The notes under the pieces are model-generated. The model did no database searches and was not told the origin of the DNA. It saw only the letters and a program-made list of their open reading frames with translations. From an uncultured virus (IMG/VR IMGVR_UViG_3300021387_000062) (Duplodnaviria; Heunggongvirae; Uroviricota; Caudoviricetes), in IMG/VR virus record IMGVR_UViG_3300021387_000062: a stretch of 58,302 bases of DNA; one strand, given 5' to 3'. Both the position numbers and the translations under genes were made by a program. Shown here one piece after another: positions 2,771-58,302 of this stretch (position 1 is the first letter of the stretch; each line of letters begins with the position of its first letter).

Positions 2771-2926
2771 GAGAGTTGGTGCAAGCGTTATTAAAAAGAA
2801 TTAACGGTGTGCAACGTTAATAAACTATTTAATAACGGTATTCTTAAATAGTTGCAAATATTTAAGTAATATGTAAGCACGTTTGCTATGGGAGCAAAAA
2901 ATACGGTAGAAATCCGTACTCTCACC
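2771..2926 (+). ncRNA. putative structured ncRNA occupying one promoter cassette
   Basis: No RBS or ORF after the promoter; GAGAG/CTCTC closing stem, TGCAA-loop hairpins, T-arm-like TACGG-TAGAAAT-CCGTA. Confidence 0.55.
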
Positions 2927-3046
2927 CTTTTAGACGTTGTACGTCTAAATCCACTGATTGACAAAATCCCTTTTCTGTGATATCATATACACGTAATCAA
3001 GAAGGGACGCCGAACTTGATTAACACTATGAAATGAGGTATCTACT

Positions 3047-3712
3047 ATGACCATCGACAAGCGCAAGAACTATTATCTGACCATTGACACGGAGACCGCC
3101 AACGGTCTTGACGATCCCATGATGTACGACCTGGGCGGCTGTATCCATGACCGTCAGGGCAACGTATACGAAACTTTCAGCTTCGTTATCTATGACGTGT
3201 TCTGTGCTGACCGTCAGCTCTTCAATACGGCGTACTATGCCGAGAAGCGCCCCATGTACGAGGCCCAGATCGCCGCAGGCCAGCGCAAGATTGTCTCCAT
3301 CTACACCGCCAAGCGCCACGTTGCTGACCTGTGCAAGAAATACAACGTCAAGGCGATTATTGCCCACAACGCCCGCTTCGACTATCGCTCTACCAACTAC
3401 ACCCTGCGCTATGTCACCAAGTCCAAGAGCCGCTATTTTCTCCCCTACGGCATTCCCCTGTGGGACACACTGAAGATGGCGCAGGACACCATCTGCAAGC
3501 AAAAAACCTACATCAAGTTCTGCCAGGACAATGATTACATGGTACGCGGACGCGTCCGGGCCACCGCCGAGATCCTCTACCGCTATATCAAGAGCGATAA
3601 CGATTTCGTTGAAGATCACACCGGCCTCGAGGATGTGCTGATTGAAAAAGAGATCTTTGCTAAGTGCATGGCACAACACAAAAAAATGCGGAAGGATGTG
3701 TGGAGCAAGTAA
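3047..3712 (+). CDS. DEDDh 3'-5' exonuclease (paralog of 1120-1869)
   Basis: IDTETA, AHNARFD, HTGLEDV; shared AYYAxKRPxY and TAExxYR segments. Confidence 0.85.
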   Translation: MTIDKRKNYYLTIDTETANGLDDPMMYDLGGCIHDRQGNVYETFSFVIYDVFCADRQLFNTAYYAEKRPMYEAQIAAGQRKIVSIYTAKRHVADLCKKYNVKAIIAHNARFDYRSTNYTLRYVTKSKSRYFLPYGIPLWDTLKMAQDTICKQKTYIKFCQDNDYMVRGRVRATAEILYRYIKSDNDFVEDHTGLEDVLIEKEIFAKCMAQHKKMRKDVWSK

Positions 3713-4151: not shown

Positions 4152-4406
4152 ATGAGTAAAGAATTTGAAAAACTTTTTCGTGTCCTCGCCGCGATGTTTC
4201 TTATCCGTGAACGTAATGCCCAAAATAGGAAAGATCATAGCGCGGCAGTTGCATATGCCAATGCTTATGATTGGCTTTGCTATGCAGTTGAAAAAAATAA
4301 AGAGTGCTTGCTACAATTTGATGATATTGGGGAAGCAATTGATTTTGCATATAATCATCAAAATATTCCTATTTGGGAATTTGAAAATTTTTTCAAAAAT
4401 AACTAA
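4152..4406 (+). CDS. hypothetical protein
   Basis: RBS AAGGAG, own promoter. Confidence 0.7.
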   Translation: MSKEFEKLFRVLAAMFLIRERNAQNRKDHSAAVAYANAYDWLCYAVEKNKECLLQFDDIGEAIDFAYNHQNIPIWEFENFFKNN

Positions 4407-4521
4407 TGGAGAATTTTAATTCTCCAATTTTAGGTTAGACGTATTACGTCTAATTTTAATTCTTGCAATTCTTTCTAAAATATGATATCATATAATCACC
4501 AAGAGAAAAGGAGTTATAAAA

Positions 4522-4713
4522 ATGAAAGTTTATGTTGTTGAAGAATATTTAAATGACTATTCTGAAAATGGTGGCGGTTTTCAGGGCATCGCCGCTGTCT
4601 TCACAGACAAAGCAAAAGCAATTGAATTTTGCAAGCCGTCTTGTCTTTTTGAAGATTATGAATCCATAGACGGTGAAACTTATTATGAATATGTAGAGTG
4701 TGAAGTTGAATAA
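4522..4713 (+). CDS. acidic hypothetical protein
   Basis: RBS AAGGAG, own promoter. Confidence 0.7.
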   Translation: MKVYVVEEYLNDYSENGGGFQGIAAVFTDKAKAIEFCKPSCLFEDYESIDGETYYEYVECEVE

Positions 4714-5136
4714 ACTTCACATTTTTATTTTTAGACGTTTTACGTCTAACTTCTCCCAAAACTTAGACGTTGCACGTCTAAATCCCAAATTTCAAGTTTT
4801 TTCTTTAAATAATTTATGAACAAATTGTGAATTTTCCATGAATAGTTAGTCTTATCTAACTCCGCAGAGTTTGCGCGTGCATTCACTCCCGCAATCTGGC
4901 CGCCCATATGCAGCAACTCCGTTGTCAAATTTTGTGTGCAGCTGCGAATGAGCTGCGTCTGGAGCTGGAAAATTCTATGAGCTGCAGCTGCGCCCGGCTG
5001 CAATTTAGAAAAAATTCCAATAAAAATCAAAATTTGACATAAAATTTTATGAATTTTGCCATCCTAAAAACTATTGACAAAATTAAATTTTTATGATATA
5101 ATATTTATAGAAAATAAAATTAAAGGAGAAAAATTT

Positions 5137-5466
5137 ATGACTCAAAAAAACATTACTGACCAGCTGCGTGCCAACTTTACTACGGATCTCGCGATTTTCC
5201 TCGCACAGAAATACGATGTGGATGTATGCCAGACCGCGGCTGGCACTCTCATGATTCCCACTGTTGACGCGGCCGGCGAAGATCGCTGGGTAAAGTTCAG
5301 CATCATCATTCCGAAGGAAGCGTCCGAAGAAGAAGGCAACGACGGCTATTCTCTGGCGCGCGATTATCAACTGAAAATCGCAGAAAAGTCTGCAAAACGT
5401 GCAGAAAAAGAGAAAATTTCCCGAGAAAAAGCCGAAAAATCCAAGAAATCCAAAGAAAAAATTTGA
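5137..5466 (+). CDS. hypothetical protein, paralog of 2335-2676
   Basis: RBS AAGGAG before ATG 5137. Confidence 0.75.
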   Translation: MTQKNITDQLRANFTTDLAIFLAQKYDVDVCQTAAGTLMIPTVDAAGEDRWVKFSIIIPKEASEEEGNDGYSLARDYQLKIAEKSAKRAEKEKISREKAEKSKKSKEKI

Positions 5467-8021: not shown

Positions 8022-8096
8022 TGGCAGGGGCGCTGAGAATCGAACTCAGACCTACGATTTTAGAGACCGTAGTGCTTACCTTTACACAACACCCCA
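8022..8096 (-). tRNA. amber suppressor tRNA, anticodon CUA (Gln-like body)
   Basis: Cloverleaf TGGGGTG...ACGGT-CTCTAAA-ATCGT...CTGAG-TTCGATT-CTCAG-CGCCCCT-G-CCA; G73, unpaired 1:72. Confidence 0.93.
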
Positions 8097-8985: not shown

Positions 8986-9609
8986 TTAATCACCATATTT
9001 CCAATAATATCCGCCAGCTTTTGTGCCCTTAATACAACTCCGAGAAATATTATTAATACCAGTCATTTCAGTTGCCTATTTAATAGATTCAAAAGTATTA
9101 ATTAAATTTCCATCCGCATCAAACTAATTTACAGAATGACATTTTGATTTTCCTGACGTTTTTGCACCACGAGCACGGCCTTCTTCTGAAGAATAATTTT
9201 CATATGTTAATAATCTCTATCTAACCCACTATCTAGTAAGACCAACTTGTTCAGCAATCTATTCAGTACTCAATCCTTGATCCCATAATTCTTCTAATAA
9301 AGACTAATCAATTTCTTTATTAGTTCCTTTACCTCCGCTGGTTAAATTATAACCAACATTAACAGTATCAAGCTCTTTTATCCAATAAATTTCTCTTTCA
9401 TCTAATAATTCTTGTGGACAAGATTCAATTACTTCTATATTAAAATTATCTTCTCCATATTTTCTAATGGCGGCATGTAAATGAGCGCATTTCGCTTCAG
9501 CATAAGCTTCATTTACGTGCTACTTCCATCTATTTTTAATACTCTATACAGTCTAACCTACATAGATCTTTCCATTTATAATATTAGTAATCTTATAAAT
9601 ATAAGCCAT
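8986..9609 (-). CDS. GIY-YIG homing endonuclease (TAG = Gln)
   Basis: MAYIYKITNIINGKIYVG*T...REIYWIKELDTVNVGYNLT; continuous if TAG is read through. Confidence 0.85.
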
Positions 9610-9679
9610 CTTTCTCACCTCTAATATTAAGTGACTTTTTTAAAGGAAAGATCTATAAAAATGATTACCTTTACAAAAA

Positions 9680-11655: not shown

Positions 11656-13194
11656 TTACTTAATGCAAGCATATCGCTCACTATTAAGCTTATCCATCAT
11701 CAGATCATATCCAGTTTTACCTTTCATGATCATCTCAAAGATAACCGGACTGAATCCACTCACAAGAGTAACTCCATCCTTTACTGTCATTGGAACATTA
11801 TCATGACGAGCATTAACATTCCAATACACAAGGTGAGGCATCTCATATCCATGAGCTTCCCACTTATCTCTAATGTTTTCCATCAGAGTATTATCTCTGC
11901 GGCCATAATACCCGCGCTGACTATCAAACTCCATATCAGAGATGATAACAAGAGACTTAGGAAGATCAGCCTGAGAGCAACGATTTTTAATTGCTGTATT
12001 AAGCAGCATATCAAAAGTCGCTTCAATATTGGTGTTTTCGCAAAGATTTGTCTGATAGATTCTCCAAACCTTATCAACAAAATCCACACCAACTGTCTCA
12101 ATCAACTGAGGATGAGAGCTAAAGCTCACATAGTGACCAGCAAAAGGACCACGTGCACGCTCTGCGGCATACAGACCAAGAGAAATTGCTACATTAATGG
12201 GCGCGCTCGCTTCGGTTCCCCACATAGAACCAGAAGTATCCACAACGCAAAGAGCATCGAGAGAACATCCATTAAAGTAATCCTTCAGATTGTCCCAATA
12301 CTTGTTAATCGCGGCCCGCTCAGTAGAATCTACCCCAGTAAGTTCTGAAATATTCGTACGATTCCAGCCCCACCCGCGGTGAACATTACGAGTAAGATTA
12401 TAAGCCTTTGCTACCACTTCGTAAGGATAAAGATCCTTGGCGTTAACCGTAGTCTTTTCATCCTTTACGAAATTCTCATAAGATACCACGTTCTTCTCGC
12501 TCTTCATGCGCTCAATATCATGCCGCGCGAACGCATTACGATAGATAAAACCAGCCTTAGAAGGAATCTTATCAAACTCGATCTCATCCCACTTGCCGGC
12601 GCTCATAAGACACTCAACTACATTGATGCGCGCCCGCAGAGCAGACAACATCTTACGATACTGGCGATGATTCAGGCCAAAAGCAGCACGAGTTTTATTG
12701 GCGAGCATACGAGACTCTTCACTAGAAGTATTCTCAGACTTCAGCCACTTTGCCAGCAGAGAAGGAGTCTTACAAGTAATGTCGAGCTTCATCTGCTCTT
12801 CCATCATCTTGAAAGCATCTCGCTCAAGCTTGGTGCCGACGAACACATACAAATCGTCCCAGCGCCCAAACTCAGGCACATACTGAAGATTGCGCCGCAT
12901 TGCTTCAGTTTCATGCGCGGCCAGCCACTTGGTCACAACGCGGAAGAATCTGCGCTCACCCTGCCCGCCACGAATATCACGCAGATAAAACAGACACTTC
13001 AGCGCATAAGTAGGATCTTCGGCAAATGCCTTCTGAAACAACACAATGCAGTCATTGTCACTACGAGAGCGATAAGCCGCGCCAAGTCCAAACAGATCGA
13101 GCAGTCCAGACATTGAAGACTTATGTGTCAGCGCGCCATTTTCAGTATAGGTATAATTAGTTGCAGACTTCATTCCATTAAGAAAATTATTCAT
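11656..13194 (-). CDS. DUF2828-family protein (TROVE/Ro60-like helical domain + vWA)
   Basis: TENGA, YLRDIRGGQGERRFF, EFGRWDDL, LLAKWL; vWA MIDAS DTSGSM and ISDMEFD. Confidence 0.85.
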   Translation of the reverse strand: MNNFLNGMKSATNYTYTENGALTHKSSMSGLLDLFGLGAAYRSRSDNDCIVLFQKAFAEDPTYALKCLFYLRDIRGGQGERRFFRVVTKWLAAHETEAMRRNLQYVPEFGRWDDLYVFVGTKLERDAFKMMEEQMKLDITCKTPSLLAKWLKSENTSSEESRMLANKTRAAFGLNHRQYRKMLSALRARINVVECLMSAGKWDEIEFDKIPSKAGFIYRNAFARHDIERMKSEKNVVSYENFVKDEKTTVNAKDLYPYEVVAKAYNLTRNVHRGWGWNRTNISELTGVDSTERAAINKYWDNLKDYFNGCSLDALCVVDTSGSMWGTEASAPINVAISLGLYAAERARGPFAGHYVSFSSHPQLIETVGVDFVDKVWRIYQTNLCENTNIEATFDMLLNTAIKNRCSQADLPKSLVIISDMEFDSQRGYYGRRDNTLMENIRDKWEAHGYEMPHLVYWNVNARHDNVPMTVKDGVTLVSGFSPVIFEMIMKGKTGYDLMMDKLNSERYACIK

Positions 13195-13881: not shown

Positions 13882-13888
13882 ATAAAAA

Positions 13889-14003
13889 CTAGACACATTT
13901 AAAATTCTTACGCTCTACCTACTAAGCTACTTGCCAAAACGGCGAGACGGGAGTTGAACCCGCGACATTAAGATCCCTCTTAATATTTGCTGTATGTGTC
14001 TTT
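13889..14003 (-). ncRNA. Y-RNA-like ncRNA A with permuted tRNA-like domain (T arm, closed acceptor hairpin, D arm)
   Basis: AGACACA-TACAGCAAA...GGGTTCAACTCCC...TAGCTTAGTAGGTAGAGC...TGTGTCT. Confidence 0.75.
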
Positions 14004-14004
14004 A

Positions 14005-14080
14005 TGGTCCGAGTAGCTGGTCCTGCCCCAGCGGCCTCGCGGTCCCAGGCCGCGCGCTCTGCTAACTGAGCTATACCCGG
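14005..14080 (-). tRNA. tRNA-Pro(UGG), atypical T-loop
   Basis: Anticodon loop CCTGGGA; T-loop GGCAGGA; CCA. Confidence 0.88.
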
Positions 14081-15614: not shown

Positions 15615-15698
15615 TGGAGCCGGAAGTGAGATTCGAACTCACGAAGCTTGCGCGACGGCTTACAAAACCGTTCCAATTGGCCACTATGGGATTCCGGC
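15615..15698 (-). tRNA. tRNA with Thr anticodon (UGU) and enlarged variable arm
   Basis: ACGGT-TTTGTAA-GCCGT; 12-nt variable region CGCGCAAGCTTC. Confidence 0.85.
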
Positions 15699-15962: not shown

Positions 15963-16048
15963 ATAAAGTGAGGACTATTATCTTGCCCGTCCTCTTGTTG
16001 GGTGAGTAGACTTTGGCAGCCGAACCGCCCGGTTATCTACAGCCTCGC

Positions 16049-16201
16049 TGGTGCGCCATCGCGGATTTGAACCGCGGACACCCGCATTAATGGTGCCGAA
16101 CGTGAGATTCGAACTCACAATCTTAGCTTTTTGAGAGCTATCCGTCTACCAATTGCAGCACTTCGGCAAGTGCGGTGCTCTGCCTACTGAGCTAATGGCG
16201 C
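16049..16201 (-). tRNA. split tRNA-Lys(UUU): 5' part 16168-16201 (34 nt), 3' part 16049-16090 (42 nt)
   Basis: Joined halves give a fully paired 76-nt cloverleaf with CCGCA-CTT|TTAA-TGCGG. Confidence 0.9.
16091..16167 (-). tRNA. tRNA-Leu(CAA) with short variable loop, nested inside tRNA-Lys
   Basis: GCCGAAG...TAGCT-CTCAAAA-AGCTA...GTGAG-TTCGAAT-CTCAC-GTTCGGC-A-CCA. Confidence 0.9.
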
Positions 16202-16483: not shown

Positions 16484-16490
16484 ATATTAA

Positions 16491-16618
16491 CAAGACGTAA
16501 TAAGATTTATTCACAGTTTATCAGACTGTTGCCTTACCGTTTGGCTAAATTGGAACACTCCAATTATGGGAATCGAACCCATATCCTTCTTAAAGAAGAG
16601 TTTGCTGTATACGTCTTT
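16491..16618 (-). ncRNA. ACAGCAA-family ncRNA C containing a circularly permuted cloverleaf (GAU loop)
   Basis: AAGACGTA/TACGTCTT stem; T arm, AATTGGA/TCCAATT hairpin, D arm, ACAGT-CTGATAA-ACTGT. Confidence 0.75.
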
Positions 16619-16921: not shown

Positions 16922-17015
16922 CGAGATACAGAAAATTTAAAGGACTTGAACCTTTTCGATAACGTTTTAGCAGAACATTTCTTTAACCATTTTATATTTT
17001 GCTGTATGTATCTCT
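16922..17015 (-). ncRNA. ACAGCAA-family ncRNA E (D-like, anticodon-like GCU and T arms; family stem replaces the acceptor stem)
   Basis: GAGATACA/TGTATCTC stem; AATGTT-CTGCTAA-AACGTT; AAAGG-TTCAAGT-CCTTT. Confidence 0.7.
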
Positions 17016-17016
17016 A

Positions 17017-17289: not shown

Positions 17290-17366
17290 TGGCGACTACG
17301 GCGGGCATTGCTCCCGCGACCTCCTGAGTGACAGTCAGGTATTCTTCGTTGCTGAACTACGTAGCC
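17290..17366 (-). tRNA. tRNA-Asp(GUC), atypical T-loop
   Basis: Loop CTGTCAC, T-loop AGCAATG, G73. Confidence 0.88.
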
Positions 17367-17763
17367 ATATGAATCCAGGGTATTTAAACCCGCCCTGGTT
17401 TCGGTATTAAAACATTGTTGAGGTATTAGATCAGGATTACTCCAACGGCCGCCCCAACTACACGACCTCGACTGTTTCTACACTTGGCAGATCAGATAAA
17501 AATGAAGGATAGAACACTACTCCTATTTCTATAACTGTCCTTCTCAGCTATAATAAGTTATTTAGAAGCGATTACTTATACCCCGCTGGCTTTTTCGATG
17601 GGCCATAACGATTGCTTTCACAGTCGTGAACTGCCTTTCAATTTATAGTTCAGCGCAATCATCATTCTGAACTCGGTTCCCCATTTCGGTTTTGCTCCCG
17701 CCTAAGCCAAGACACTTTTAGCGTTCTTGTTGCATAATAGTTTCACCATCCCACTATTAAGGC

Positions 17764-18065: not shown

Positions 18066-18216
18066 TGGTACTCTAGGTTGGATTCGAACCAACGATCACC
18101 GGATTATTGGCCGAGATAGAGAGTACCGCCCTCTCTTTCAGTGATACTAGACCACCTGCGAAACTATCCGCACCTATCCCGAAGTCCGGCGCTCAAACCA
18201 ACTGAGCTGCTAGAGT
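18066..18216 (-). tRNA. split tRNA-Ile(UAU): 5' part 18182-18216, 3' part 18066-18107 (42 nt)
   Basis: Joined halves: ACTCTAG...CCGGA-CTT|ATAA-TCCGG...GTTGG-TTCGAAT-CCAAC-CTAGAGT-A-CCA. Confidence 0.88.
18108..18181 (-). tRNA. degenerate tRNA-like unit nested inside tRNA-Ile
   Basis: 7-bp acceptor CGGGATA/TATCTCG + G + CCA; D arm TGCG/CGCA; T arm GAGAG-7nt-CTCTC; non-canonical loops. Confidence 0.8.
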
Positions 18217-21211: not shown

Positions 21212-22141
21212 TCACCTCTTTTTAGGCATAGTAATTGCCTATATTATATCCATACCGTTTTCAATACGTTTATATACTGACTATCTACTAATATTAAAAT
21301 AACGGCACCATTCTGTTACTGTTTTTCGTTCACCATTAATTAATGGATGAGTTTTATTATATGTCTATTTTAGTTCATCTATATCATAATTATTATTAAT
21401 AATATTACCTTGAAAATCTATTTCACGCCAAATATACCCGTTAACATTAGTATAACGACTATCACCTTTAATACATTTTCCAATTGATTGTCGCGAAATA
21501 TTTAATAAATTACTTGCTTCTAAAATAGAATTAAAATATATTTCTTCTTTTTCATCATCTAAGGGAATACCAACTATATATTTAGAACTTTTATATCTTT
21601 TAAACGGTTTAGAAATAATACAATTATTTTCATCAATATCACGAAAATACATATCATTACACGAAGATCTAAATCCTTTACATACCCCTCTTATATCACT
21701 AGCACGCCCGTCAAGATTATTTTTTCGTGCAGCATCATTATATGACGTATATATTTCAATAATATTTTCATTTAAATCAACTTTCGCACACTTTTGTGAT
21801 ATTTTTTCTAATACCATTGCTTTTAATTTTTCATCTAGTAAAGAACAATGAGTATTAAGTGTTTGATTATATCCATTATTTAAAGAATCATATTGAATAA
21901 TCATCTATTTTTCATATTCTTCCATATCATATGCATTATTAAATAATGAAGATAATATTTCAAATTTAAAATTATCAATACCATATTTTCTAAAAGCACG
22001 CTATAATGGATAATTATAACTTGGCGCATTCGGATTCTAAGCAGCATTAATATGCTCTTCCCATCTTTTAATGTAACGAATACTAGAACCAATATATGCT
22101 TTATTATTTATCTAATTAGTAATTTTATATACAACAAACAT
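21212..22141 (-). CDS. GIY-YIG homing endonuclease with NUMOD-like repeats (TAG = Gln)
   Basis: MFVVYKITN*INNKAYIGSS...GYNQT; FNSILEAS...GYIWR. Confidence 0.85.
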
Positions 22142-22230: not shown

Positions 22231-22737
22231 TCATGAATTATCCACCTTCATAATTGCTGTATATTTATACGGATCACGATAAGGATCACTTAAAGCTTTA
22301 AACATCTTCCTAAGTGCATCTTCTGGTACACAAGCGCGCCCGCTACGTTCTTCGTTACGTGCTACTATAGTTTCATAATCACTGTATACCACAACTGGAA
22401 TAATATTAATTTCCTCTTCTTTCCAACGAAAGCCCATATAATACTTAATAGCATTAAGAAGTTTCTTCCGAGAACCCCAACTCAAATGAGTTGCATCCGC
22501 GACAATATTATATACTCCTTCTTCATAAAAACCGCGTACAATTTTACTAATAAACAAATCAAATACTTCATCTTCTCTACTAAAATAATCGTCTTCATCT
22601 TTTAAGAGAGAAAAACGTACTTCATCTCGTGAAACATAATACCACCCCGGCCCATTACATAATTTATGTTTTGCAAACCAAGTTTTCCCCGAGCCGGGTG
22701 CTCCACACATAATCCAAAGAGTTTTGTTATCCATCAA
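22231..22737 (-). CDS. P-loop polynucleotide-kinase-like (AAA_33) protein
   Basis: GAPGSGKT, SRDEVR, DATH, RNEER. Confidence 0.8.
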   Translation of the reverse strand: MMDNKTLWIMCGAPGSGKTWFAKHKLCNGPGWYYVSRDEVRFSLLKDEDDYFSREDEVFDLFISKIVRGFYEEGVYNIVADATHLSWGSRKKLLNAIKYYMGFRWKEEEINIIPVVVYSDYETIVARNEERSGRACVPEDALRKMFKALSDPYRDPYKYTAIMKVDNS

Positions 22738-23370: not shown

Positions 23371-24624
23371 TTACCCATGATATTTCAGCAGAAAGCTATT
23401 GCTAACAGCTTTGAAAGATCGAGTTCCATCAACGCTTCTCAGCACAAGGCCTTCACGAGGCAGATCATCAATCATCGACTTGCCTTCTGCAAGAGTAAGA
23501 ATCTTATCCAGACGAGTCTCTCCATTCAGCTGATCAAGCTGATTAAAAGAGAATGAAGATTCAACTACTGGTACGCAAGGAACATTAAATCCATTTTCCA
23601 GAAGATTCTTCATCGCATTACTATTCCATCTGCCTTTATCAGAAGTAATAAGATTAAATGCGGCAAAGTCATGCCCAGTAAGACTATAATCTCTTTTCTG
23701 CACACCAGCGCCATAAGTTTCCCCTTGAATAGTAACCCAATTAGCGTTAGGCATCCGTTCAAGAAGCTCATTCAACACTTTAAACATGTCATACTTCTGC
23801 GCCATTTCCCAATAAATATTGGTGTCATAGTAACAAGGTTTATCAACGCTATCAAAGCATACATTACGAGAGCATACATAAAACTCATTTTTACGGCGGC
23901 CGCGCTTCATAGTGAAAGTGGTAGAACTACCATCAATTTTTTCAGTGATAATCCATTCCCCTTCATCTTCCAGAATCCAAGGCATATTCTGAACACGCTC
24001 TTCATCGGTCTTTACGACCCACTCAGGCCAGCCATTCTTTTTGTCTTTCTTCTTGCCGAAGAATACAAACATGAGTTTACGGCCCCACTCGCGCTTCATC
24101 AGCCAGCGCGCCCAAGACTTCTTAAAGATATTAGGATGCCGCTGAGCCATTTTCTTATACTTATCCACAGAAGGAGCCTTGCGCTGATTATCCTCTGCGT
24201 CTGCATAGGTTACACCAAGCTCTTTGGTAAGAAAACGAGACTCACCATTAGCATAATGACACTCTCCCTTATTGTCCTTAATATAAGGAATATTTCCAGA
24301 AGAATCATTAGTATCATATCCAATACTCCATCCGAAATCTTCTGCGTGCATAAGAAGACCCTGAGAAATTACCTTACACATACGAAGTGTTTTTACCTTA
24401 TAGTTTCGCTTTGCAAGAAACGCAAAACATTCCTTATCATACGAAACCTGGGAGTCAATCTCAAAATAAATCGCAGGATCGCCAACGTTAAACTGGCCCT
24501 TCTGAACAATCACCCACCAGCCACCAACACGGGCATGCTCAACACGATCATAATTAGGAATAGGACGAATTTCATCAATAGTCACTACATAACAGAGTTC
24601 CCTCTGATTTTCCTTATTAAGCAT
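23371..24624 (-). CDS. ATP-dependent RNA ligase (DRB0094/Rnl-like)
   Basis: KTDEERVQN, EKIDGSS (motif I), QGETYG, EGLV, FKAVS. Confidence 0.88.
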   Translation of the reverse strand: MLNKENQRELCYVVTIDEIRPIPNYDRVEHARVGGWWVIVQKGQFNVGDPAIYFEIDSQVSYDKECFAFLAKRNYKVKTLRMCKVISQGLLMHAEDFGWSIGYDTNDSSGNIPYIKDNKGECHYANGESRFLTKELGVTYADAEDNQRKAPSVDKYKKMAQRHPNIFKKSWARWLMKREWGRKLMFVFFGKKKDKKNGWPEWVVKTDEERVQNMPWILEDEGEWIITEKIDGSSTTFTMKRGRRKNEFYVCSRNVCFDSVDKPCYYDTNIYWEMAQKYDMFKVLNELLERMPNANWVTIQGETYGAGVQKRDYSLTGHDFAAFNLITSDKGRWNSNAMKNLLENGFNVPCVPVVESSFSFNQLDQLNGETRLDKILTLAEGKSMIDDLPREGLVLRSVDGTRSFKAVSNSFLLKYHG

Positions 24625-24673: not shown

Positions 24674-25444
24674 TTATTTATCAAATTTTTCAATGGACTT
24701 CCACATCACTTGCATTACAATTTGTTCTACTTTATACTGCGTCCATTTATCTTCTTTATTATTCATAGAGATAAAACTATCATTATGATTACGACATTTT
24801 TGAATACAATTATATGCAATCATTTCTAAAGTTTCTTTTGAAAATTCATTATTTTTAATTGCAAGTAAAAAATCTCGGTTATCTGTAACAAGGCATTCTT
24901 CAAAACTTTTATCTTTACGATATTTATCCATGCATTCTTCAATGCGCGCAAGTTGATAAACCCATTTACTAAAATGGTTTTCTTCGCTACGATTTACAGT
25001 AAGTTTATAATTGCGATCAGCCATACCAAGGAGCGCACGCATCGTATTATTAGGATTACAACGTGCAATATCTTCGCGCATACGCATTAGAATATGGATT
25101 TCTTCTCCATAATATCCAGTATTTAAATCTCCCCAATTAGAAAAAAGAGTTTCAAGAAACTGAGGATTTCCTTTAACAAGACTTTTCATATAATTACGAA
25201 TATCACAGCAATCAATATGCTCCTCATTAGGGAGAAGATGAGTATATGCTTCACATTTATTTTCAACAATATTGCGAAGAGTAGGGATAAAAATGGCTTT
25301 AGTATCTATATCACTATATTCATCAGCACAATTATAATTCCAACTACCAACTGGTACAAGCATAAATTGCTGAAAAGGTTGAAATGTCATATTATAAAAA
25401 AGATAATGTTCTCTAATATTTGGATACATTTTATTTACTGACAT
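24674..25444 (-). CDS. Pol-beta-like nucleotidyltransferase
   Basis: GSWNY...SDIDTK; GNPQFLETL. Confidence 0.75.
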   Translation of the reverse strand: MSVNKMYPNIREHYLFYNMTFQPFQQFMLVPVGSWNYNCADEYSDIDTKAIFIPTLRNIVENKCEAYTHLLPNEEHIDCCDIRNYMKSLVKGNPQFLETLFSNWGDLNTGYYGEEIHILMRMREDIARCNPNNTMRALLGMADRNYKLTVNRSEENHFSKWVYQLARIEECMDKYRKDKSFEECLVTDNRDFLLAIKNNEFSKETLEMIAYNCIQKCRNHNDSFISMNNKEDKWTQYKVEQIVMQVMWKSIEKFDK

Positions 25445-25997
25445 TTCTTTTCTCCTTTCTTTCTGTTGCTTTATCAATCGTAGAACGGTGCAATGGTATA
25501 ACCTCTTTGAGCCGGCCGCTCTTTATAAACTGATTAAAGTTTACAGGCATATAATGAATTACATCACTACATACACAAAGATGGCCAGAGCGATCAAAGG
25601 TACTTATATGAGTGTGCCCATGAATATTAAAAGCCCAACTAATAGCTAGCGGTTCATGAGACAAAATAATACGTTCTCCAATCATGAGCGGGCCGCCATA
25701 TACTTCTTCAAATACGTCTTCATAATTAGAAAGACCGCTATCATGATTTCCTTTAATAAGAATCTTATGTCCTCTAAGTCTTCGCGCGCACTCAATATCT
25801 CCAACATCTCCAAGAAGAATTAGATGATCCTTGCGGCCGACCTTAGAGTTAATTAGTTTGATTTGTTCTTCGGCAGAAGGGCGGTTTGGAAATGGCACAC
25901 GAAGATCTTTATCTTCATTAAAATGGGTGTCACTGTAAAGCCAAACCGTACCCTCTCTATGCCAATGTTCAAAACATTTATAAAGTCCTTCAATCAT
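25431..25997 (-). CDS. calcineurin-like metallophosphoesterase
   Basis: SDTHF, LGDVG, GNHD, SHEP, HGHTH. Confidence 0.85.
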   Translation of the reverse strand: MIEGLYKCFEHWHREGTVWLYSDTHFNEDKDLRVPFPNRPSAEEQIKLINSKVGRKDHLILLGDVGDIECARRLRGHKILIKGNHDSGLSNYEDVFEEVYGGPLMIGERIILSHEPLAISWAFNIHGHTHISTFDRSGHLCVCSDVIHYMPVNFNQFIKSGRLKEVIPLHRSTIDKATERKEKRNVSK

Positions 25998-28324: not shown

Positions 28325-28822
28325 TCACACCATCCATTTCTTTCTTTCTTCTTTAGTCATATTTCTTACCATAGTGGCACTAATATTAAGTTCTTTTCTT
28401 TCTGGATCAAGACACCGATAAACAGCATCAGGATAAGCTCGCTTGAAGTAAGGTGCATAACTTGGTTCACTCCCATATACTGCGTCCAAATGTCCACAAC
28501 GTGCAAGCACAAGAGGGGTTTCAGCATCCCAATCTTCTGAGCCATCAGCAAGCTTACAATTGCTTACGTCAATAACTTCTACAAGTACATTATCATATAG
28601 GGCGGCCGCGCGACAGCATTGAGTAAGACGATTCTCAATATCTAAATCTTCATCACCTGACATATCACGAGCGATTTGCTCTTCTTGGTCGCCGCCGATA
28701 AACATTATAAGATATACTAATTCACATTCACACGCGGCCGTGTCAAGACATTTTAGATGCCCCTTATGCATTGGCATAAACTTGCCACCATACATTCCAA
28801 CTTTATATTTCTTTTCACTCAT
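28325..28822 (-). CDS. NadR-like NMN adenylyltransferase (cytidylyltransferase family)
   Basis: GGKFMPMHKGH, SEPSY, NISATMVR; adjacent to pnuC. Confidence 0.8.
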   Translation of the reverse strand: MSEKKYKVGMYGGKFMPMHKGHLKCLDTAACECELVYLIMFIGGDQEEQIARDMSGDEDLDIENRLTQCCRAAALYDNVLVEVIDVSNCKLADGSEDWDAETPLVLARCGHLDAVYGSEPSYAPYFKRAYPDAVYRCLDPERKELNISATMVRNMTKEERKKWMV

Positions 28823-29358
28823 TCAATTACATCCTTTATATCACTTGGGAACTCGCCATAAATCATTCCTTTATGTCTAAAATGATTATGAATATTTTCA
28901 ACCCAAGAAATACTTTTCCACATAGACCGTCGGTGAGTACCCACATATTCAAAAGATAGCGGTGCTTCAAAAAGCATAAATAACTTTATCATCTGTTCTT
29001 TTGGAATCACTCTACTTCTTTTTTTATTGTTCTCTAAGCAAAGTTTTGGAAGAGCATCTACCCAAATTAAATGATGCTCAAAACCAGAAAACCAATTAAG
29101 AAACTCTGCTCTATCACAATATGTGGGTGCATTAGTATCAACAACTACGTCTTGCCCAGCTATTTCTGCTGCATGAATCTGTCGGAAGAAAGTCATCCAT
29201 ACATCAAATTTATTATCATGAGAAGTGGGATCACCATTAAAAGTAGCATACATATCATCAATAGAAAGATACCTAAATCCATTCTTTCGCGCAAGTTCAC
29301 GTGCATATGTAGACTTGCCACTACCAGGATGACCGCACATCAAAAACATTTTTGCCAT
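28819..29358 (-). CDS. P-loop (AAA_33) kinase
   Basis: GHPGSGKST, SIDD, VVDTN. Confidence 0.8.
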   Translation of the reverse strand: MAKMFLMCGHPGSGKSTYARELARKNGFRYLSIDDMYATFNGDPTSHDNKFDVWMTFFRQIHAAEIAGQDVVVDTNAPTYCDRAEFLNWFSGFEHHLIWVDALPKLCLENNKKRSRVIPKEQMIKLFMLFEAPLSFEYVGTHRRSMWKSISWVENIHNHFRHKGMIYGEFPSDIKDVIE

Positions 29359-29670
29359 TTAGATTTCCCTCCATCCATTATGTTTAATAATACGACACAT
29401 ATTTTCAATTCCAACTGAATTTTGACTATGAATATGAAAGAAATACCCAGTATCAACAATGCCTTCACGCTCAAGCCAATTCAGAATCTCAATATGGTCG
29501 CCACCGTCTTTAGCGTAATCACCAGCATCATGATCGAGATCAATTATAATAGTATCATCTCGCATATTACTTTCATAAGTACGAATTGCTGATTTAGCTC
29601 CATTAACAGTCCGACACCAGAGCCAACTCGTATCGGGCGGCCGACGTGTGTCATCAATCCAGAGCTTCAT
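29359..29670 (-). CDS. cyclic-phosphate-processing receiver-domain-like protein
   Basis: MKLWIDDTRRPP...DLDHD...IHSQNSVG. Confidence 0.7.
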   Translation of the reverse strand: MKLWIDDTRRPPDTSWLWCRTVNGAKSAIRTYESNMRDDTIIIDLDHDAGDYAKDGGDHIEILNWLEREGIVDTGYFFHIHSQNSVGIENMCRIIKHNGWREI

Positions 29671-29892
29671 TTTTATTCTCCCTTCTCTCATTTTCTGTAT
29701 ATATTATAACATAAAAATCTAAAAAAGTCAAAATAAAAAGAAGAACTATACCCTTCAATAGTTCTTCTTCTGAATGGTGCATAGTACAACCTATGCTTAC
29801 AGAGTTCTTCCCTGGAGTTCCCATGCTTTTTAACCGTTCGATACATGGTGGTGGACCTCGGAGTTCAGAAGCCATCATTAATTACTTAAAAA

Positions 29893-31879: not shown

Positions 31880-32347
31880 TTACTTTACGCCGTTCAAAAA
31901 AGAAATTGCTTCATTCACGTCTTCATCAGTGAGACCAATACCACCATTTATTTGAATAAGATGATCTCTATATATACTCATATCATACCAATCATCTAGA
32001 ATTACAAAAGACTCTATATCTAAATCTTTATGTAATTCAAACCATTCATTAATAGCAGCACCACGACTCGGCCGCATAGGCATTGGAAGAGCATCCCAAA
32101 TTTCCATACCATATTCTTTAAGTTTATCTCTAAGTTGGTTAAAGAATGGTTCATTCTTAGACTCGTCTTCTCTATTCCAACCATCCCGCCATGTAGAACT
32201 TAATACGATCTTGGCGCCCGTGGCATCAATTATTCGTTTCAGACGTTCAACTAGATAATCATCAACAAAGCACCATCCATCAAATGTTATGGTACGTGTC
32301 AAATTATTATTTAGTACACCGTCAACGTCAAGAAATAGTAACTTCAT
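31880..32347 (-). CDS. HAD phosphatase (RNA-repair-associated type)
   Basis: FLDVDGVLN, LSSTWR, VILDD. Confidence 0.8.
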   Translation of the reverse strand: MKLLFLDVDGVLNNNLTRTITFDGWCFVDDYLVERLKRIIDATGAKIVLSSTWRDGWNREDESKNEPFFNQLRDKLKEYGMEIWDALPMPMRPSRGAAINEWFELHKDLDIESFVILDDWYDMSIYRDHLIQINGGIGLTDEDVNEAISFLNGVK

Positions 32348-35249: not shown

Positions 35250-37061
35250 TTAATTTGTAAATATTGTTCGTAGTCCAAATAATAATTCATCTAATTGCTT
35301 CTAATTAAAATCAATTGACATAGTACCATTTTTCATAGTATAATCCTTGACTATGTCCCATTCTCGTTTTAATTCTTCTTGCTGTTCATCTTTAGACATA
35401 GCCGCGAATTTACTTATAGGGACTTCACCACGCAATGATATATAATCACTATCTGGATATGGACTAGCTGGATTAATTTTTACATTTACAAATTTATTTG
35501 GATCAGTATCTCCTTCTAAATTTTCTAATGTCTGCTAAAGAATCTATGATGCCGTAAAATACGCTCCACCACTATTGAATAAATGGACGCGATTTATACG
35601 TGAACTTGCAGGAGTATCACTAATATTAAATATTTCTTCATAATCATCCCACATCCAAGCTACTGCAACCGCGGCTAAGTAATCTGCTATTTCAGAAATA
35701 CGTCCATCAGCTATACAACCTTTTGTTGTATTATTTAACATAAAAATTAATTTACTAGTCATATTTCCGCCAAGATCTATTTTTTTAAGATTAGACATAC
35801 GATTATAAAAATTACCTTCTCCTTCAATCTATAAATTGTAATTTGAAGTATAACCTTTAATATTTTCTGTTAATTCAAACATTTCACCGACACTAGTAGT
35901 TTCTAAAGCTTCATTCACTCGTTTTTCAATCGCACTTAATAAGTTTTCACCATTTTTTGATACATTTTGTGCATAAATTTCATCTACTATACTATCTATA
36001 TCTATATCTGCATTAAAAACTTCAAAACCTATAGCATCTGCTTTTTGCTATACATTATAAACTTCGCCAGTAAATTCATTTTTAATTTCTTTAGTTAATT
36101 CTCCAGTTGCTAATCCTTTCGCACCTATTTTCTATAAACTACCTATAGCATATACTTCAGTACTAAGACCTCTACCTATACTAGCATATATTGCATCAGC
36201 AATATTTTTTGCTATAGCACTAGGTTTTCTAAATTTACCCTTTTTAGTTATAAAATGGCTCATATTAAGTTTTGAATTAGTAATATCTGTAACATTCATA
36301 CTATTATCTTTTAAAGCAATATCAAAATTTAAGGTAGAAAAATTTTCAAAAGCTTTTTTTAAACCATCTACAAATTGTTTTTTTATAAAATTTAAAGAAT
36401 TATTTTTAACATCTGGACTATCTAATATTTTTGTTAAAAATTCATCTACTAAACTACTAAAATCAGTATCAAAATCTAAATGAAGTACATTTGACCCAGC
36501 CTAAGCTTCAATCTATTGCTAAAGTTTATTTTGAATAAATTTAGAAAACTAACTACTCCAAAATTCATTCGTTTTCTAAAAACTTTTAAATCTATTTGAT
36601 GCCGCTTCTTGTTTAAATTTTTCAAGATCTTTGTCTCGCCTAAGTAATAAAGTGTATGCTGTATTATAATCTTTTCCTTCTACTGCCGCGGCAATCTAAT
36701 CTAAATAAGATGGATCAATGATATTCATTTTTCTTAATTGCTCTAATTTTAATCGAAGATAACGTTCTTCTATTCCAGACTAAGCCGCAATAATTTTTCT
36801 TAAATAATCTAAAAACTATCCATAAGAAGCACGTATGTTTGTAGATTTTATATTAAACATACGATCTTCATAAGTAAGACCTTGCTATACCGCGGTTGGG
36901 TTTGGTTCATATCCACCTAAACCACGACGATATATAGAATAGCCATTACTCATAAAAGAAGTGGCACCAGTAAACCACCATGTGGTAGATTCTGTTAACC
37001 CATGATAACGTGTAGTCTTACCTTTATAATAATTCTATGATAAATTTTTATAGTTTGCCAT
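35250..37061 (-). CDS. hypothetical 603-aa protein (many in-frame TAG)
   Basis: RBS AGGAG; ATG 37061 and TAA 35250 in frame with track fragment 35544-35798. Confidence 0.7.
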
Positions 37062-53542: not shown

Positions 53543-56023
<2,481 letters not shown>

Positions 56024-56458
56024 GGCTCGCCTCAAAATGAATAATATAGTTCTTTCGATGATAAGTTGGACATGTAGCGGAAATTCATAAAAAGTTAGTG
56101 ATTTAAATAACACTTTAAGCCGTGACTTGAATTCAATCATAACGTCATTTAAAGAGAAATTTAAATCCCTTAAATATACCAAAACACGCTCCGAGCGCAG
56201 TAACTCGGAGCGTGTTTTCTCTATATTTAGTTGTATATGGCGGGAATTTTGAGTTTTTCATGGCGGGTTTTTACTATGATTTTAAGTAGAGAAGTTGTAT
56301 GGGGAATATAGATTTTTAGTAAGTGAAGTAATTTAAATTCTCCTTTAGTTATTTATAAAGCGCTCTTTAACTTCCCAACTAATCCACTTTTTATATTCTC
56401 CCTAAATTTTTTCCTACTTAATACTGAATAAAATAACTCTGAAAGGAGGTAACTGCAA

Positions 56459-58144: not shown

Positions 58145-58302
58145 AGGCCTACTTAAGTCAGAACCGTCTCGCAGCACCGAAGGCTTGTGATCCTCGCGGG
58201 CGGCTGATGTAGGTGCTGCCGGACGATTCCGGCAGGTGAATAATAATTAGACTGACAGTGCATATGAGAGGAGGCGGGATCATGCTTCTGATCAGGGTTA
58301 TG

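Follow-up and report, generated by a model that had tools for sequence, protein, structure and literature searches.

Textbooks, to our knowledge, describe the tRNA introns of bacteria and phages as self-splicing ribozymes and assign the protein-spliced ones to archaea and eukaryotes. Group I introns occur in bacterial tRNA anticodon loops, for example at positions 34/35 of tRNA-Leu(UAA), and some archaeal introns carry a functional small RNA, such as the C/D box RNA in a tRNA-Trp intron. Among phages, 'enigmatic' tRNA introns have been reported for Lak megaphages (Devoto et al., 2019, Nat Microbiol, PMC6784885); of one the authors write that it 'itself may encode a tRNA'. This intron lies in a Thr-TGT gene, and the presence of such introns varies between related genomes (PMC6784885, Table S6). 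The first-pass annotation of the DNA studied here knew of no described case in which a tRNA serves as an intron, a statement that the Lak report contradicts. The passages of the Lak report considered here propose neither a mechanism nor a link to a ligase (PMC6784885), and our literature search found no paper that proposes a mechanism for tRNA-shaped introns.

The window, by which we mean the whole stretch of 58,302 nucleotides from an uncultured gut phage of the Caudoviricetes (IMG/VR IMGVR_UViG_3300021387_000062) that was analysed, contains a tRNA-Lys(UUU) gene interrupted in its anticodon loop by a second tRNA with the anticodon CAA (Table 1). The first-pass annotation had reported this nest, and its coordinates agree with ours; by ARAGORN the inner element is a tRNA-Leu(caa), and it reaches 47.9 bits with the Rfam tRNA model (gathering score 29). 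Deletion of the inner element in silico, likewise announced in that annotation, indeed yields a 76-nt tRNA-Lys(ttt) that ARAGORN recognises, with all four stems paired, a restored 7-nt loop reading CTT|TTAA and the split site between positions 34 and 35. With its intron option, ARAGORN shifts the 77-nt insert by one base in the 3' direction, so that the outer gene reads as Thr(tgt); the comparison with uninterrupted relatives decides for Lys. In blastn against the related phage contig L003, window positions 16394-16168 correspond to L003 3985-4211 and window positions 16090-15708 to L003 4212-4592, and L003 4211 and 4212 are adjacent bases inside an uninterrupted tRNA-Lys(ttt). Two related phage contigs carry the Lys gene uninterrupted, which shows the inner tRNA to be a clean insertion of 77 bp. 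In the comparison with L003 this insertion equals the tRNA exactly, with no base lost, duplicated or extra and no flanking repeats, and neither inverted repeats, a hairpin stalk nor extra DNA bound it. At its 3' boundary, ACCA|TTAA, the NCCA tail abuts exon 2 directly, and in folds of the locus the inner acceptor stem (7 bp) borders with its base directly on the 5' junction, and the 4-nt ACCA tail comes just before the 3' junction.

Table 1. Nested tRNA genes and RNA-repair genes of the window (positions in the window), with inserts of related phage contigs (L numbers) listed by their site in the outer tRNA.
Feature	Position	Strand	Remarks
Lys/Leu nest	16049-16201	-	tRNA(CAA) in tRNA-Lys(UUU)
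tRNA-Lys(UUU) exon 1	16168-16201	-	34 nt; acceptor 5' strand, D arm, anticodon-stem 5' strand, loop C32 U33 U34; alignment to the uninterrupted L003 tRNA-Lys runs to base 4211
Inner tRNA(CAA), intervening sequence	16091-16167	-	77 nt, G1 through CCA (tail ACCA)
tRNA-Lys(UUU) exon 2	16049-16090	-	42 nt; U35 U36 A37 A38, anticodon-stem 3' strand, variable loop, T arm, acceptor 3' strand, ACCA
Split tRNA-Ile(UAU), whole gene	18066-18216	-	insert at same 34/35 site as Lys
tRNA-Ile(UAU) exon 1	18182-18216	-	ends CTT at position 34
tRNA-Ile(UAU) insert	18108-18181	-	74 nt, cloverleaf-shaped, ends GCCA
tRNA-Ile(UAU) exon 2	18066-18107	-	starts ATAA
AAA_33 kinase-like, candidate polynucleotide 5'-kinase	22231-22737	-	PF13671 54.4 bits
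ATP-dependent RNA ligase	23371-24624	-	N-terminal OB and RNA_ligase domains; PF09414 76.2 bits, PF21189 68.1 bits
RlaP-family nucleotidyltransferase	24674-25477	-	adjoins ligase; PF10127 23.1 bits (cut-off 23)
Calcineurin-like phosphoesterase, candidate 3'-end healing enzyme	25431-25997	-	PF12850 24.8 bits, below cut-off 27
Second AAA_33 kinase-like protein	28819-29358	-	PF13671 67.3 bits
cREC_REC, cyclic-phosphate-processing receiver domain protein	29359-29691	-	PF20274 63.2 bits
HAD_SAK_2, HAD phosphatase domain of 'Swiss Army Knife' RNA-repair proteins	31880-32347	-	PF18143 94.4 bits
Insert in Ile(UAU) of L010			at 36/37; tail-blind scan
Insert in suppressor(CUA) of L010			at 35/36; tail-blind scan
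Insert in Leu(UAA) of L034			at 34/35; tail-blind scan
Insert in Lys(UUU) of L043			at 35/36; tail-blind scan

That the inner element is a complete tRNA-Leu(CAA), as the first-pass annotation put it, holds for its 77-nt extent from G1 through CCA. The structure is less regular: a G7-G66 mismatch leaves 6 of 7 acceptor pairs, the D stem has 3 bp and the long variable arm is missing, its place being taken by a 10-nt gap in an alignment to a phage tRNA-Leu(CAA). Judging from this alignment, the inner tRNA is derived from a tRNA-Leu(CAA) that has lost this arm. Its anticodon, CAA, differs from the UUU of the outer tRNA.

The nest was seen in no other contig in our scans of viral and metagenome sequences. 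Among viral contigs a 28-mer from exon 1 matched only L001, which has a different insert, and a 38-mer from the inner tRNA had no match; metagenome contigs yielded no match for a 22-mer of the inner anticodon arm or for the CCA/exon-2 junction pattern, and cultured phages none for the inner tRNA. The 3.1-kb tRNA array matched cultured phages only via generic tRNA-Leu similarity. The only exact match of exon 2 in reference genomes, over 40 nt, lies within an uninterrupted tRNA-Lys of a Clostridiales MAG, on a contig of 13.6 kb; this contig may itself be phage DNA, and the match does not identify the host. The hosts of this phage group are probably Gram-positive. Assembled contigs of three RNA runs (X15, X17 and X18) include none over 16049-16201. 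The only joint that skips the 77 nt was rejected as spliced RNA: it lies on a DNA contig with a depth of ~1325 and different flanks and represents the uninterrupted tRNA-Lys of another organism.

A second nest lies in the tRNA-Ile(UAU) gene of the window, whose exons adjoin at 2582|2583 in the uninterrupted tRNA-Ile of the relative L004. Its insert has an acceptor-like stem with 7 of 7 pairs and a T-like arm with the loop GGCGGTA, and when folded alone (MFE) it forms a cloverleaf with a 4-nt tail at -23.7 kcal/mol. Neither ARAGORN nor Rfam calls this insert a tRNA.

The first-pass annotation had suggested looking for similar nesting in related phages, and such a search did find inserts of unrelated sequence at 34/35 (L034) and also at 35/36 and 36/37. 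We searched 50 sources for inserts of 45-95 nt that have acceptor-like ends and that, once removed, leave a tRNA recognised by ARAGORN; the 3' end was left free (hence tail-blind). By design this finds only inserts whose removal restores a good tRNA and would miss imprecise, dead insertions. The nested arrangement exceeds chance, because six of the seven distinct inserts found, the Lys locus among them, end in CCA, as against an expectation of 1 in 64. Besides the two in the window, four further cases are independent (two in L010 and one each in L034 and L043), and additional insert-bearing suppressor tRNAs occur in L070, L069 and L062. A relaxed scan that allowed outer loops of 3-11 nt gave 224 raw matches, mostly noise. 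Related phage contigs also hold a doubtful mini-insert at 32/33.

Whatever their position in the loop, the inserts start with a 7-bp acceptor-like stem and end with NCCA against exon 2. In the other five inserts of the scan this stem has 6-7 of 7 pairs. Four of six inner elements score above the Rfam tRNA gathering threshold (47.9, 45.6, 41.0 and 31.4 bits), and the remaining two are cloverleaves devoid of tRNA loop motifs. The shortest inserts (49-50 nt) consist of just the acceptor stem of 7 bp, a T-like arm (5 bp, loop of 7 nt) and NCCA. Orthologous 75-nt inserts in L010 and L070 differ by compensatory changes, from T-A to C-G in the acceptor-like stem and from C-G to G-C in the T-like stem, and both keep NCCA. 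The base before the insertion is U at 6 of the 7 distinct sites, which lends weaker support; bacterial RNase P prefers U at -1. On these shared ends and stems, the Lys locus is to be placed in a recurrent class of CCA-tailed, acceptor-stem-bearing anticodon-loop inserts of TAG-recoded gut phages.

In two recoded genomes the interrupted gene would be the only detectable source of a TAG-reading tRNA. The complete 124-kb genome G001 is TAG-recoded (one frame of 2510 codons contains 76 TAG), its sole CUA tRNA is interrupted by an insert, and this anticodon results only if the insert is excised at the CCA boundary. G006 likewise has no candidate TAG-reading tRNA besides its insert-bearing gene, so that in both of these complete genomes, which use TAG as an amino acid codon, no TAG-reading tRNA is detectable except the interrupted one. 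G007 has a second suppressor tRNA, which is uninterrupted. The window, too, has an uninterrupted suppressor tRNA gene. The recoding call in G001, G006 and G007 rests on frame lengths and TAG counts, since a search of the relatives for structural-protein homologues that would bear on recoding found nothing and five of six long TAG-rich ORFs of G001 have no Pfam family.

If such inserts are removed from the RNA, nucleases alone cannot supply the joining, and a ligation step is required. The ligase of the window, whose closest solved relative is the nick-sealing RNA ligase of Naegleria gruberi (5cot, E 1.5e-34), is proposed to be of the nick-sealing type and is a candidate sealing enzyme for tRNA halves. 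It is surrounded by putative healing functions (Table 1), and the function of RlaP as an RNA-repair accessory is taken from a preprint (10.64898/2025.12.29.696909). The window and all six related insert-bearing genomes checked encode an ATP-dependent RNA ligase, with PF09414 in G001, G003, G006 and G007 and in the window and a T4 Rnl1-type enzyme in G002, although its presence does not discriminate, since G004 and G005, relatives with an uninterrupted Lys gene, have the ligase too. A weak PF09414 match in G002 was rejected as an RNA ligase, being an NAD-dependent DNA ligase. RtcB (PF01139) was found in none of five related phage genomes, and neither RtcB nor an EndA-type endonuclease is among the 61 window ORFs scanned. 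Many ORFs of the window have no assigned family. An RNase Z-like metallo-beta-lactamase was likewise found in none of the five related phage genomes, so a host enzyme would be needed for such a cut.

From these features we infer an excision-ligation mechanism in which RNase P and a cut just after the CCA would remove the insert and the phage ligase would join the halves, a reading to which we assign a probability of about 0.5. Transcription of the array would give a long precursor RNA, and both cloverleaves would fold within it. RNase P would cut at the 5' end of the inner tRNA, leaving exon 1 with a 3'-OH, and a cut exactly after the inner CCA would free exon 2; the latter could be made by an RNase Z-type enzyme, leaving a 5'-phosphate, or by another nuclease whose ends could be healed by the phage kinase and phosphoesterases. 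The Lys halves, held together by the acceptor and anticodon stems, would then amount to a tRNA nicked at 34/35, a 34/42 split of the kind on which RNA-repair enzymes are studied, and the ATP-dependent RNA ligase of the phage would seal the nick. This would yield a mature tRNA-Lys together with a released inner tRNA of uncertain decoding ability. The first-pass annotation had already proposed that the usual tRNA-processing nucleases excise the inner tRNA like an intron, which fits all the comparative evidence gathered here but leaves out the ligation. The acceptor stem, the T-like arm and NCCA are the elements on which RNase P and tRNA 3'-end enzymes are known to act. In well-studied bacteria the standard route to the tRNA 3' end does not involve a precise endonucleolytic cut after an encoded CCA; a cut right after CCA is known for Thermotoga RNase Z. 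Counting against the proposed route are the G7-G66 mismatch of the inner tRNA, the lack of the Lys/Leu nest in any other contig scanned and the uninterrupted second suppressor tRNA of G007.

The main rival to splicing is that the outer Lys gene is dead, a tRNA inserted into the DNA of its anticodon loop having inactivated it, with at most the inner tRNA being made. The insert could have been captured where a homing endonuclease specific for anticodon loops had broken both DNA strands. Alternatively, a repair ligase could have joined a mature tRNA into a cleaved loop at the RNA level, and this RNA could then have been copied into DNA; however, no reverse transcriptase was found in five related genomes. 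Inserts that are each unique to their own contig and unrelated in sequence are what sporadic insertions should leave, the Lys/Leu nest has no orthologue, and our scans are biased towards intact outer genes. Moreover, relatives carry ORFs for PD-(D/E)XK endonucleases inserted at 36/37 of several tRNAs, and the DNA of the anticodon loop is therefore a hot spot for mobile DNA in this group. It is not evident from such a scenario why the insertion should be free of flanking repeats and extra bases, or why inner elements that are not decoders keep an acceptor stem and NCCA, with compensatory changes between orthologues. Nor does the insert carry a replacement tRNA-Lys, and no other tRNA-Lys gene was found in the window; if the suppressor genes were dead as well, two complete TAG-recoded genomes would be left with no detectable TAG-reading tRNA. 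We consider a dead gene rather unlikely.

A chimera assembled through tRNA-Lys exons shared with an abundant organism of the same sample is very improbable. In favour of it, DNA run X1 contains a contig of depth ~1325, against ~40 for the phage, with an uninterrupted tRNA-Lys that matches both exons within different flanks, and X1 contigs break at 16168. However, a chimera would not insert an entire tRNA with single-base precision at 34/35, and the same architecture is found a second time in the window as well as in independent contigs of other samples. It is also conceivable that splicing takes place independently of RNase P and RNase Z, through a dedicated phage or host endonuclease that recognises the tRNA-shaped insert or its junctions, after which the kinase, phosphoesterase, RlaP and ligase of the repair kit would heal and seal the ends. 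The healing and sealing set of the window would suit 2',3'-cyclic-phosphate and 5'-OH ends, the ORFs of the window that lack a family leave room for such an enzyme, and relatives have ORF-bearing inserts that show neither a ribozyme nor a tRNA shape and whose splice sites lie in a helix, so that another cutting activity may exist in this phage group. No candidate endonuclease was found, however, and the invariant parts of the inserts are those that RNase P and 3'-end enzymes are generally known to recognise, which makes a dedicated endonuclease quite improbable in our view. Excision by tRNA end-processing enzymes followed by sealing is thus the reading that we favour.

If it holds, a very simple and new route of RNA splicing would have been built from housekeeping enzymes. 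The only constant features of these ribozyme-less inserts are recognition elements of tRNA end-processing enzymes, and each phage brings an RNA ligase. It is tempting, if no more than tentative, to view the inserts as a fourth kind of tRNA intron, which would have neither a ribozyme nor a dedicated endonuclease, would owe its excision by end-trimming to tRNA mimicry and would depend on a phage repair ligase for rejoining. Phage RNA ligases would then gain a routine role beyond damage repair, and the 'enigmatic' introns of Lak phages would be explained. Since maturation would depend on its own ligase, the phage could bring the provision of key tRNAs under its own programme, and these could include the TAG-reading suppressor that unlocks recoded late genes; the scheme thus bears on how recoded phages control suppressor tRNAs. 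The inserts may go back to accidents of an arms race over tRNA cleavage, in which a repair ligase sealed an entire tRNA into an anticodon loop that a nuclease had opened and the resulting RNA was copied back into DNA. The release of two tRNAs from one gene would also be a compact design for RNA devices.

How does the locus compare with known systems? It shares the 34/35 site with group I introns, and relatives (L001, L022, L023, L025 and L046) do carry such introns, inserts of 711-742 nt, in tRNA-Leu(UAA). However, the insert of the window has 77 nt and no ribozyme core, whereas group I introns measure ~200 nt or more; the Rfam model Intron_gpI (RF00028) has no match within 16049-16201, whether with the gathering threshold or with E<=5, and matches elsewhere in the window, at 38481-38698 (66.7 bits). 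With the protein-spliced introns of archaea and eukaryotes (EndA/TSEN, RtcB) it would share a protein-dependent logic of cutting and ligating, as well as varied positions. Yet the bulge-helix-bulge (two 3-nt bulges and a 4-bp helix) is absent at the junctions in the folds, and the nucleases proposed here are tRNA end-processing enzymes. In mitochondrial tRNA punctuation, RNase P and RNase Z cut at the borders of tRNAs and so set where the adjoining RNAs start and end, but there the flanking pieces are not rejoined. The circularly permuted tRNA genes of Cyanidioschyzon merolae, in which ligation precedes end processing, resemble the proposed route in needing a ligation step and differ from it in relying on bulge-helix-bulge machinery.

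The last proposed reaction, the sealing of a broken tRNA-Lys anticodon loop, is that of tRNA repair in phage T4, where PrrC cuts tRNA-Lys, Pnkp heals the ends and Rnl1 seals them. RlaP-linked repair uses 34/42 tRNA halves according to the preprint that describes it (10.64898/2025.12.29.696909). In both of these the break is toxin damage, whereas here it would be the programmed processing of a gene-encoded insert. The introns of Lak phages are alike in being short, ribozyme-less anticodon-loop inserts in phage tRNA genes with a tRNA-like 3' part. By our own reading of the sequences in Table S6, however, the Lak inserts have a small hairpin and an A/T-rich linker 5' of that part and end 1-2 nt past the acceptor-like strand, lacking a CCA. 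Compared with these listed sequences, the insert of the window starts at G1, ends in ACCA and consists of a tRNA and nothing else.

The tRNA-Lys(UUU) gene of the window indeed contains a tRNA within its anticodon loop. The inner element is a tRNA-Leu(caa) by ARAGORN and scores 47.9 bits with the Rfam tRNA model, and scripted deletion of exactly 16091-16167 leaves a 76-nt tRNA-Lys(ttt) with all stems paired and the loop CTT/TTAA, as the first-pass annotation had described. An uninterrupted tRNA-Lys(ttt) occupies the corresponding place in two related phage loci, L003 and L004, retrieved via the 58-aa ORF directly upstream, and the flanks of the inner tRNA align (blastn) to neighbouring L003 bases, 4211 and 4212. 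Since the flanks match adjacent bases of an uninterrupted gene, the inner tRNA is, on this comparison, derived: 77 bp were cleanly inserted between positions 34 and 35 and, as the first-pass annotation stated, no bases were added or duplicated. ARAGORN in intron mode offers Thr(tgt) for the outer tRNA, with a boundary off by one base; the relatives decide for Lys. The description of the insert as a complete tRNA-Leu(CAA) is accurate for its extent, G1 to CCA, and for its ARAGORN identity, but the element has a G7-G66 mismatch and a D stem of 3 bp. When it is aligned to the tRNA-Leu(CAA) of a related phage genome (G007), acceptor, D arm, anticodon loop and T arm correspond, and a 10-nt gap stands in place of the long variable arm.

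The Rfam tRNA model also covers 148 nt at 18069-18216 of the window, a place at which tRNA-Ile(tat) is uninterrupted in L003 and L004. Here 74 additional bases (18108-18181) lie between bases contiguous in L004, and the split, CTT/ATAA, is again at 34/35. Neither ARAGORN nor Rfam calls a tRNA in this insert; folded alone (minimum energy), it takes a cloverleaf shape, in which the acceptor-like stem has 7 bp and the GCCA tail stays unpaired. T loops of RGCRRYA type (such as AGCAATG, AGCATTA and GGCAGTA) replace the usual TTCRANY in several phage tRNAs, including the window tRNA-Asp, the L004 tRNA-Lys (4178-4252) and the outer suppressors of the related loci L070 and L062. Because this loop type also occurs in the cloverleaf inserts (GGCGGTA in the tRNA-Ile insert), these probably derive from such phage tRNAs.

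Related phages contain further nests with other inner elements, at 34/35 (L034), 35/36 and 36/37. We fetched 45 related loci via the DUF2828 protein adjoining the tRNA array and scanned 50 sources for 45-95-nt inserts with acceptor-like end pairing (at most 1 mismatch, 4-nt tail) whose removal restores an ARAGORN tRNA. With the tail sequence left unconstrained, 19,501 raw candidates yielded 7 distinct matches, 6 of which end in CCA (see table); the seventh, with a GTA end and an odd loop, is doubtful. The inner elements of L034, L043 and the L010 tRNA-Ile score 45.6, 41.0 and 31.4 bits with Rfam. The inserts have no sequence kinship to one another, and each is restricted to one contig. A gapped pattern search for suppressor-tRNA inserts (22 loci, 20 matches parsed) gave three cases in which removal restores tRNA(cta), namely L066 (the L010 contig), L070 and L069; L062 (the L046 contig) falls into the same tRNA family by alignment and has no ARAGORN call, and the remaining 16 matches look like chance. 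Inserts of 49-50 nt, found in L069, L062 and at 32/33 in the tRNA-Leu(UAA) of L003 and L004, retain nothing but an acceptor stem, an arm of 5 bp with its 7-nt loop, and NCCA; the tRNA-Leu(UAA) case is doubtful because only 5/7 acceptor pairs form. The tRNA-Lys nest belongs to a recurrent, structurally constrained insert class.

Coordinates of the inserts and of other features in the window and related loci
Feature	Source	Position	Strand	Basis or remark
5' half of outer tRNA, 34 nt	window	16201-16168	-	sequence
Inner tRNA, 77 nt, G1 to CCA	window	16167-16091	-	sequence
3' half of outer tRNA, 42 nt	window	16090-16049	-	sequence
tRNA-Lys and tRNA-Ile inserts (n=2), end CCA	window	34/35, 34/35		tail-blind scan
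Ile(UAU) insert, ends CCA	L010	36/37		tail-blind scan
Suppressor(CUA) insert, ends CCA	L010	35/36		tail-blind scan
Leu(UAA) insert, ends CCA	L034	34/35		tail-blind scan
Lys(UUU) insert, ends CCA	L043	35/36		tail-blind scan
ORF-type insert	L001	2535-2966
ORF-type insert	L003	about 4823-5300
ORF-type inserts	L004	about 4484-4949; 2817-3292
ORF-type insert	L010	6031-6579
ORF-type insert	L019	7917-8449
Suppressor tRNA(CUA), uninterrupted	window	8022-8096		ARAGORN
RNA ligase	window	23371-24624		RNA-repair kit member
Permuted tRNA-like element	window	16486-16612	-	between tRNA-Tyr and tRNA-Leu(TAA)
tRNA-like element	window	16925-17016	-	after tRNA-Ala
Non-coding stretch, ~340 nt	window	17395-17732	-	between tRNA-Asn and tRNA-Asp
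82-nt stretch	window	15966-16048	-	directly after tRNA-Lys
tRNA-Thr(tgt), 84 nt	window	15615-15698	-
tRNA-Asp	window	17290-17366		RGCRRYA-type T loop
YrlA-like stretch	window	13882-13993	-	Rfam
DUF2828/DUF7788 protein, 512 aa	window	11656-13194	-
PhoH-like gene	window	37104-38994	-	interrupted
Group I intron	window	38481-38698		Rfam, 66.7 bits
LAGLIDADG endonuclease ORF	window	37662-38486		in group I intron
GIY-YIG homing-endonuclease-like genes	window	8986-9618; 21212-22141; 42696-43688	-

Inserts of another kind, 458-488 nt long and almost wholly one ORF, sit at 36/37 of tRNA-Lys, Thr, Asp and Met in relatives. The ORF of L001, the one scanned, matches PD-(D/E)XK endonuclease family PF11645 (E 2.8e-30). 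These inserts leave no space for a ribozyme. One helix, formed by the last bases of exon 1 and the first of the insert with the last bases of the insert and the first of exon 2, contains both junctions, 3 bp apart.

The window has other elements near its tRNA genes. One is a circularly permuted tRNA-like element, ordered as T arm and acceptor 3' strand, a short loop closing the acceptor stem, acceptor 5' strand, D arm and anticodon arm (GAT), and closed overall by a 7-bp helix, AAGACGT/ACGTCTT. Rearranged by script, it is called tRNA-Ile(gat) by ARAGORN, and it is kept in L001, L003, L004 and L006 (anticodon GTT in L006), its closing helix and anticodon stem varying by compensatory changes. 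It is either a permuted tRNA gene needing ligation or a Y-RNA-like scaffold. It has the motif ATACAGCAAA in common with the tRNA-like element after tRNA-Ala, which has a closing helix GAGATAC/GTATCTC, a canonical T arm, a possible anticodon loop CTGCTAA and extra inserts; a similar (T)ACAG starts the L001 insert and the Lak phage introns as printed in Table S6 of PMC6784885. The ~340-nt stretch, absent at this position from L001 and L003, has no Rfam match, is covered at 100% identity by a contig of the same-sample RNA library (X15), has related contigs in two other RNA runs, and may be a stable structured RNA. The 82-nt stretch is common to the window and L003; L001 and one contig from RNA run X18 have 9 different bases in its stead. 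The tRNA-Thr(tgt) has extra bases in the D and variable regions, its place in L001 being taken by an unrelated 76-nt tRNA-Thr(tgt). A weak YrlA (Y RNA-like) match (35.4 bits against a threshold of 69), present also in L010 and L043, adjoins a tRNA-model match at 14008-14080 and the DUF2828/DUF7788 protein; the two may represent a phage Ro-like protein with a Y-like RNA.

Signs that inserts are removed come from the suppressor genomes. The genome holding L010, G001, is complete (124 kb) and TAG-recoded, with frames of 2510 codons (76 TAG) and 1565 codons (31 TAG). ARAGORN finds 25 tRNAs in it and Rfam 21 matches, none extra; the only CUA tRNA detected is the insert-bearing one, and a separate anticodon-arm search for another gave four candidates, none cloverleaf-compatible. 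This tRNA reads CUA only if the insert is excised at the CCA boundary, the default ARAGORN boundary giving CUG, and its exons share their architecture with the uninterrupted suppressor of the window. G006 (123 kb, complete, recoded) presents the same picture, except that its outer tRNA has no ARAGORN call. The sole-suppressor argument does not extend to G007, because that genome has one additional, uninterrupted suppressor tRNA. L010 and L070 have orthologous inserts of 75 nt (identity ~70% by eye), which retain NCCA and differ by compensatory changes, T-A to C-G in the acceptor-like stem and C-G to G-C in the T-like stem. An ATP-dependent RNA ligase gene is present in the window and in 6/6 related insert-bearing genomes checked; since G004 and G005, with an intact Lys gene, also have it, this co-occurrence is consistency, not proof. 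Bacterial RNase P prefers U at -1, and the U that precedes the insertion site in 6 of 7 distinct sites weakly supports cutting by this enzyme.

Taken together, the insert class, the suppressors, the covariation, the ligase and the U at insertion sites lead us to propose that RNase P would cut at the 5' end of the inner tRNA, that a second cut would fall exactly after its CCA, and that the phage ligase would seal the nicked outer tRNA, with healing enzymes assisting where the termini call for them. An ATP-dependent ligase needs a 3'-OH and a 5'-phosphate, of which RNase P leaves the former and an RNase Z-type cut would produce the latter. The cut after CCA is the weakest step of the model: such a cut is usual for the RNase Z of Thermotoga but is not known as the normal route in the best-studied Firmicutes, and an RNase Z-like protein was found in 0/5 related phage genomes. 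No RNA-run contig covers the locus, and the only joint skipping the 77 nt was rejected as a high-depth DNA contig of another organism. No second copy of the nest was found in the viral contigs, metagenome contigs and cultured phages searched, and the scans see only inserts whose removal restores a tRNA, being blind to imprecise, dead insertions (a relaxed scan returned mostly noise). A dead tRNA-Lys gene is therefore a serious rival. The earlier suggestion that ordinary nucleases remove the inner tRNA as an intron fits the insert class and the suppressor genomes, but it needs a ligase as well; with that addition, it is the best available reading, albeit an unproven one.

The window comes from an uncultured tailed phage, whose long frames need TAG as sense (for instance 35250-37061, 16 TAG; 53543-56182, 10 TAG). 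The endolysin (CHAP and peptidoglycan-binding domains) and a BppU-type baseplate domain point towards a Gram-positive host; among public runs, the window's DNA is best represented in a gut metagenome, and no close relative was found among cultured phages. At 22-34 kb, the window encodes an RNA-repair kit comprising, besides the ligase, an RlaP nucleotidyltransferase, two AAA_33 kinases, calcineurin-like phosphoesterases, one cREC_REC protein and one HAD_SAK_2 protein. The nearest solved relative of the ligase is the Naegleria gruberi RNA ligase (E 1.5e-34), which seals 3'-OH/5'-phosphate nicks. According to a 2025 preprint (10.64898/2025.12.29.696909), RlaP extends damaged tRNA halves by one or two nucleotides at the 3'-OH ahead of ligation, with 34/42 tRNA halves as the model substrate. 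Elsewhere in the window, a PhoH-like gene is interrupted by a group I intron bearing a LAGLIDADG ORF, and there are three GIY-YIG homing-endonuclease-like genes, that at 42696-43688 with 10 in-frame TAG (12 in the G001 homologue). Rfam also matches a DUF3800-VIII RNA at 58163-58227 (+; 45.7 bits) and, in G001, a drum RNA adjoining the tRNA array (73.3 bits; L056 14612-14723).

The belief that no such case had been described does not hold. 'Enigmatic introns' were reported in tRNAs of Lak megaphages, among them a tRNA-Thr(TGT) intron that could code for a tRNA of its own (Devoto et al., 2019, PMC6784885), and the portions of that paper considered here propose no mechanism. We found nothing beyond it in the literature on tRNA-shaped tRNA inserts; the kind has been glimpsed before and is not wholly new. 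By our own reading of the Table S6 sequences (PMC6784885), the Lak inserts differ from ours in having an additional 5' hairpin and linker and no CCA end, and CCA-less ends fit hosts whose tRNA genes do not encode CCA.
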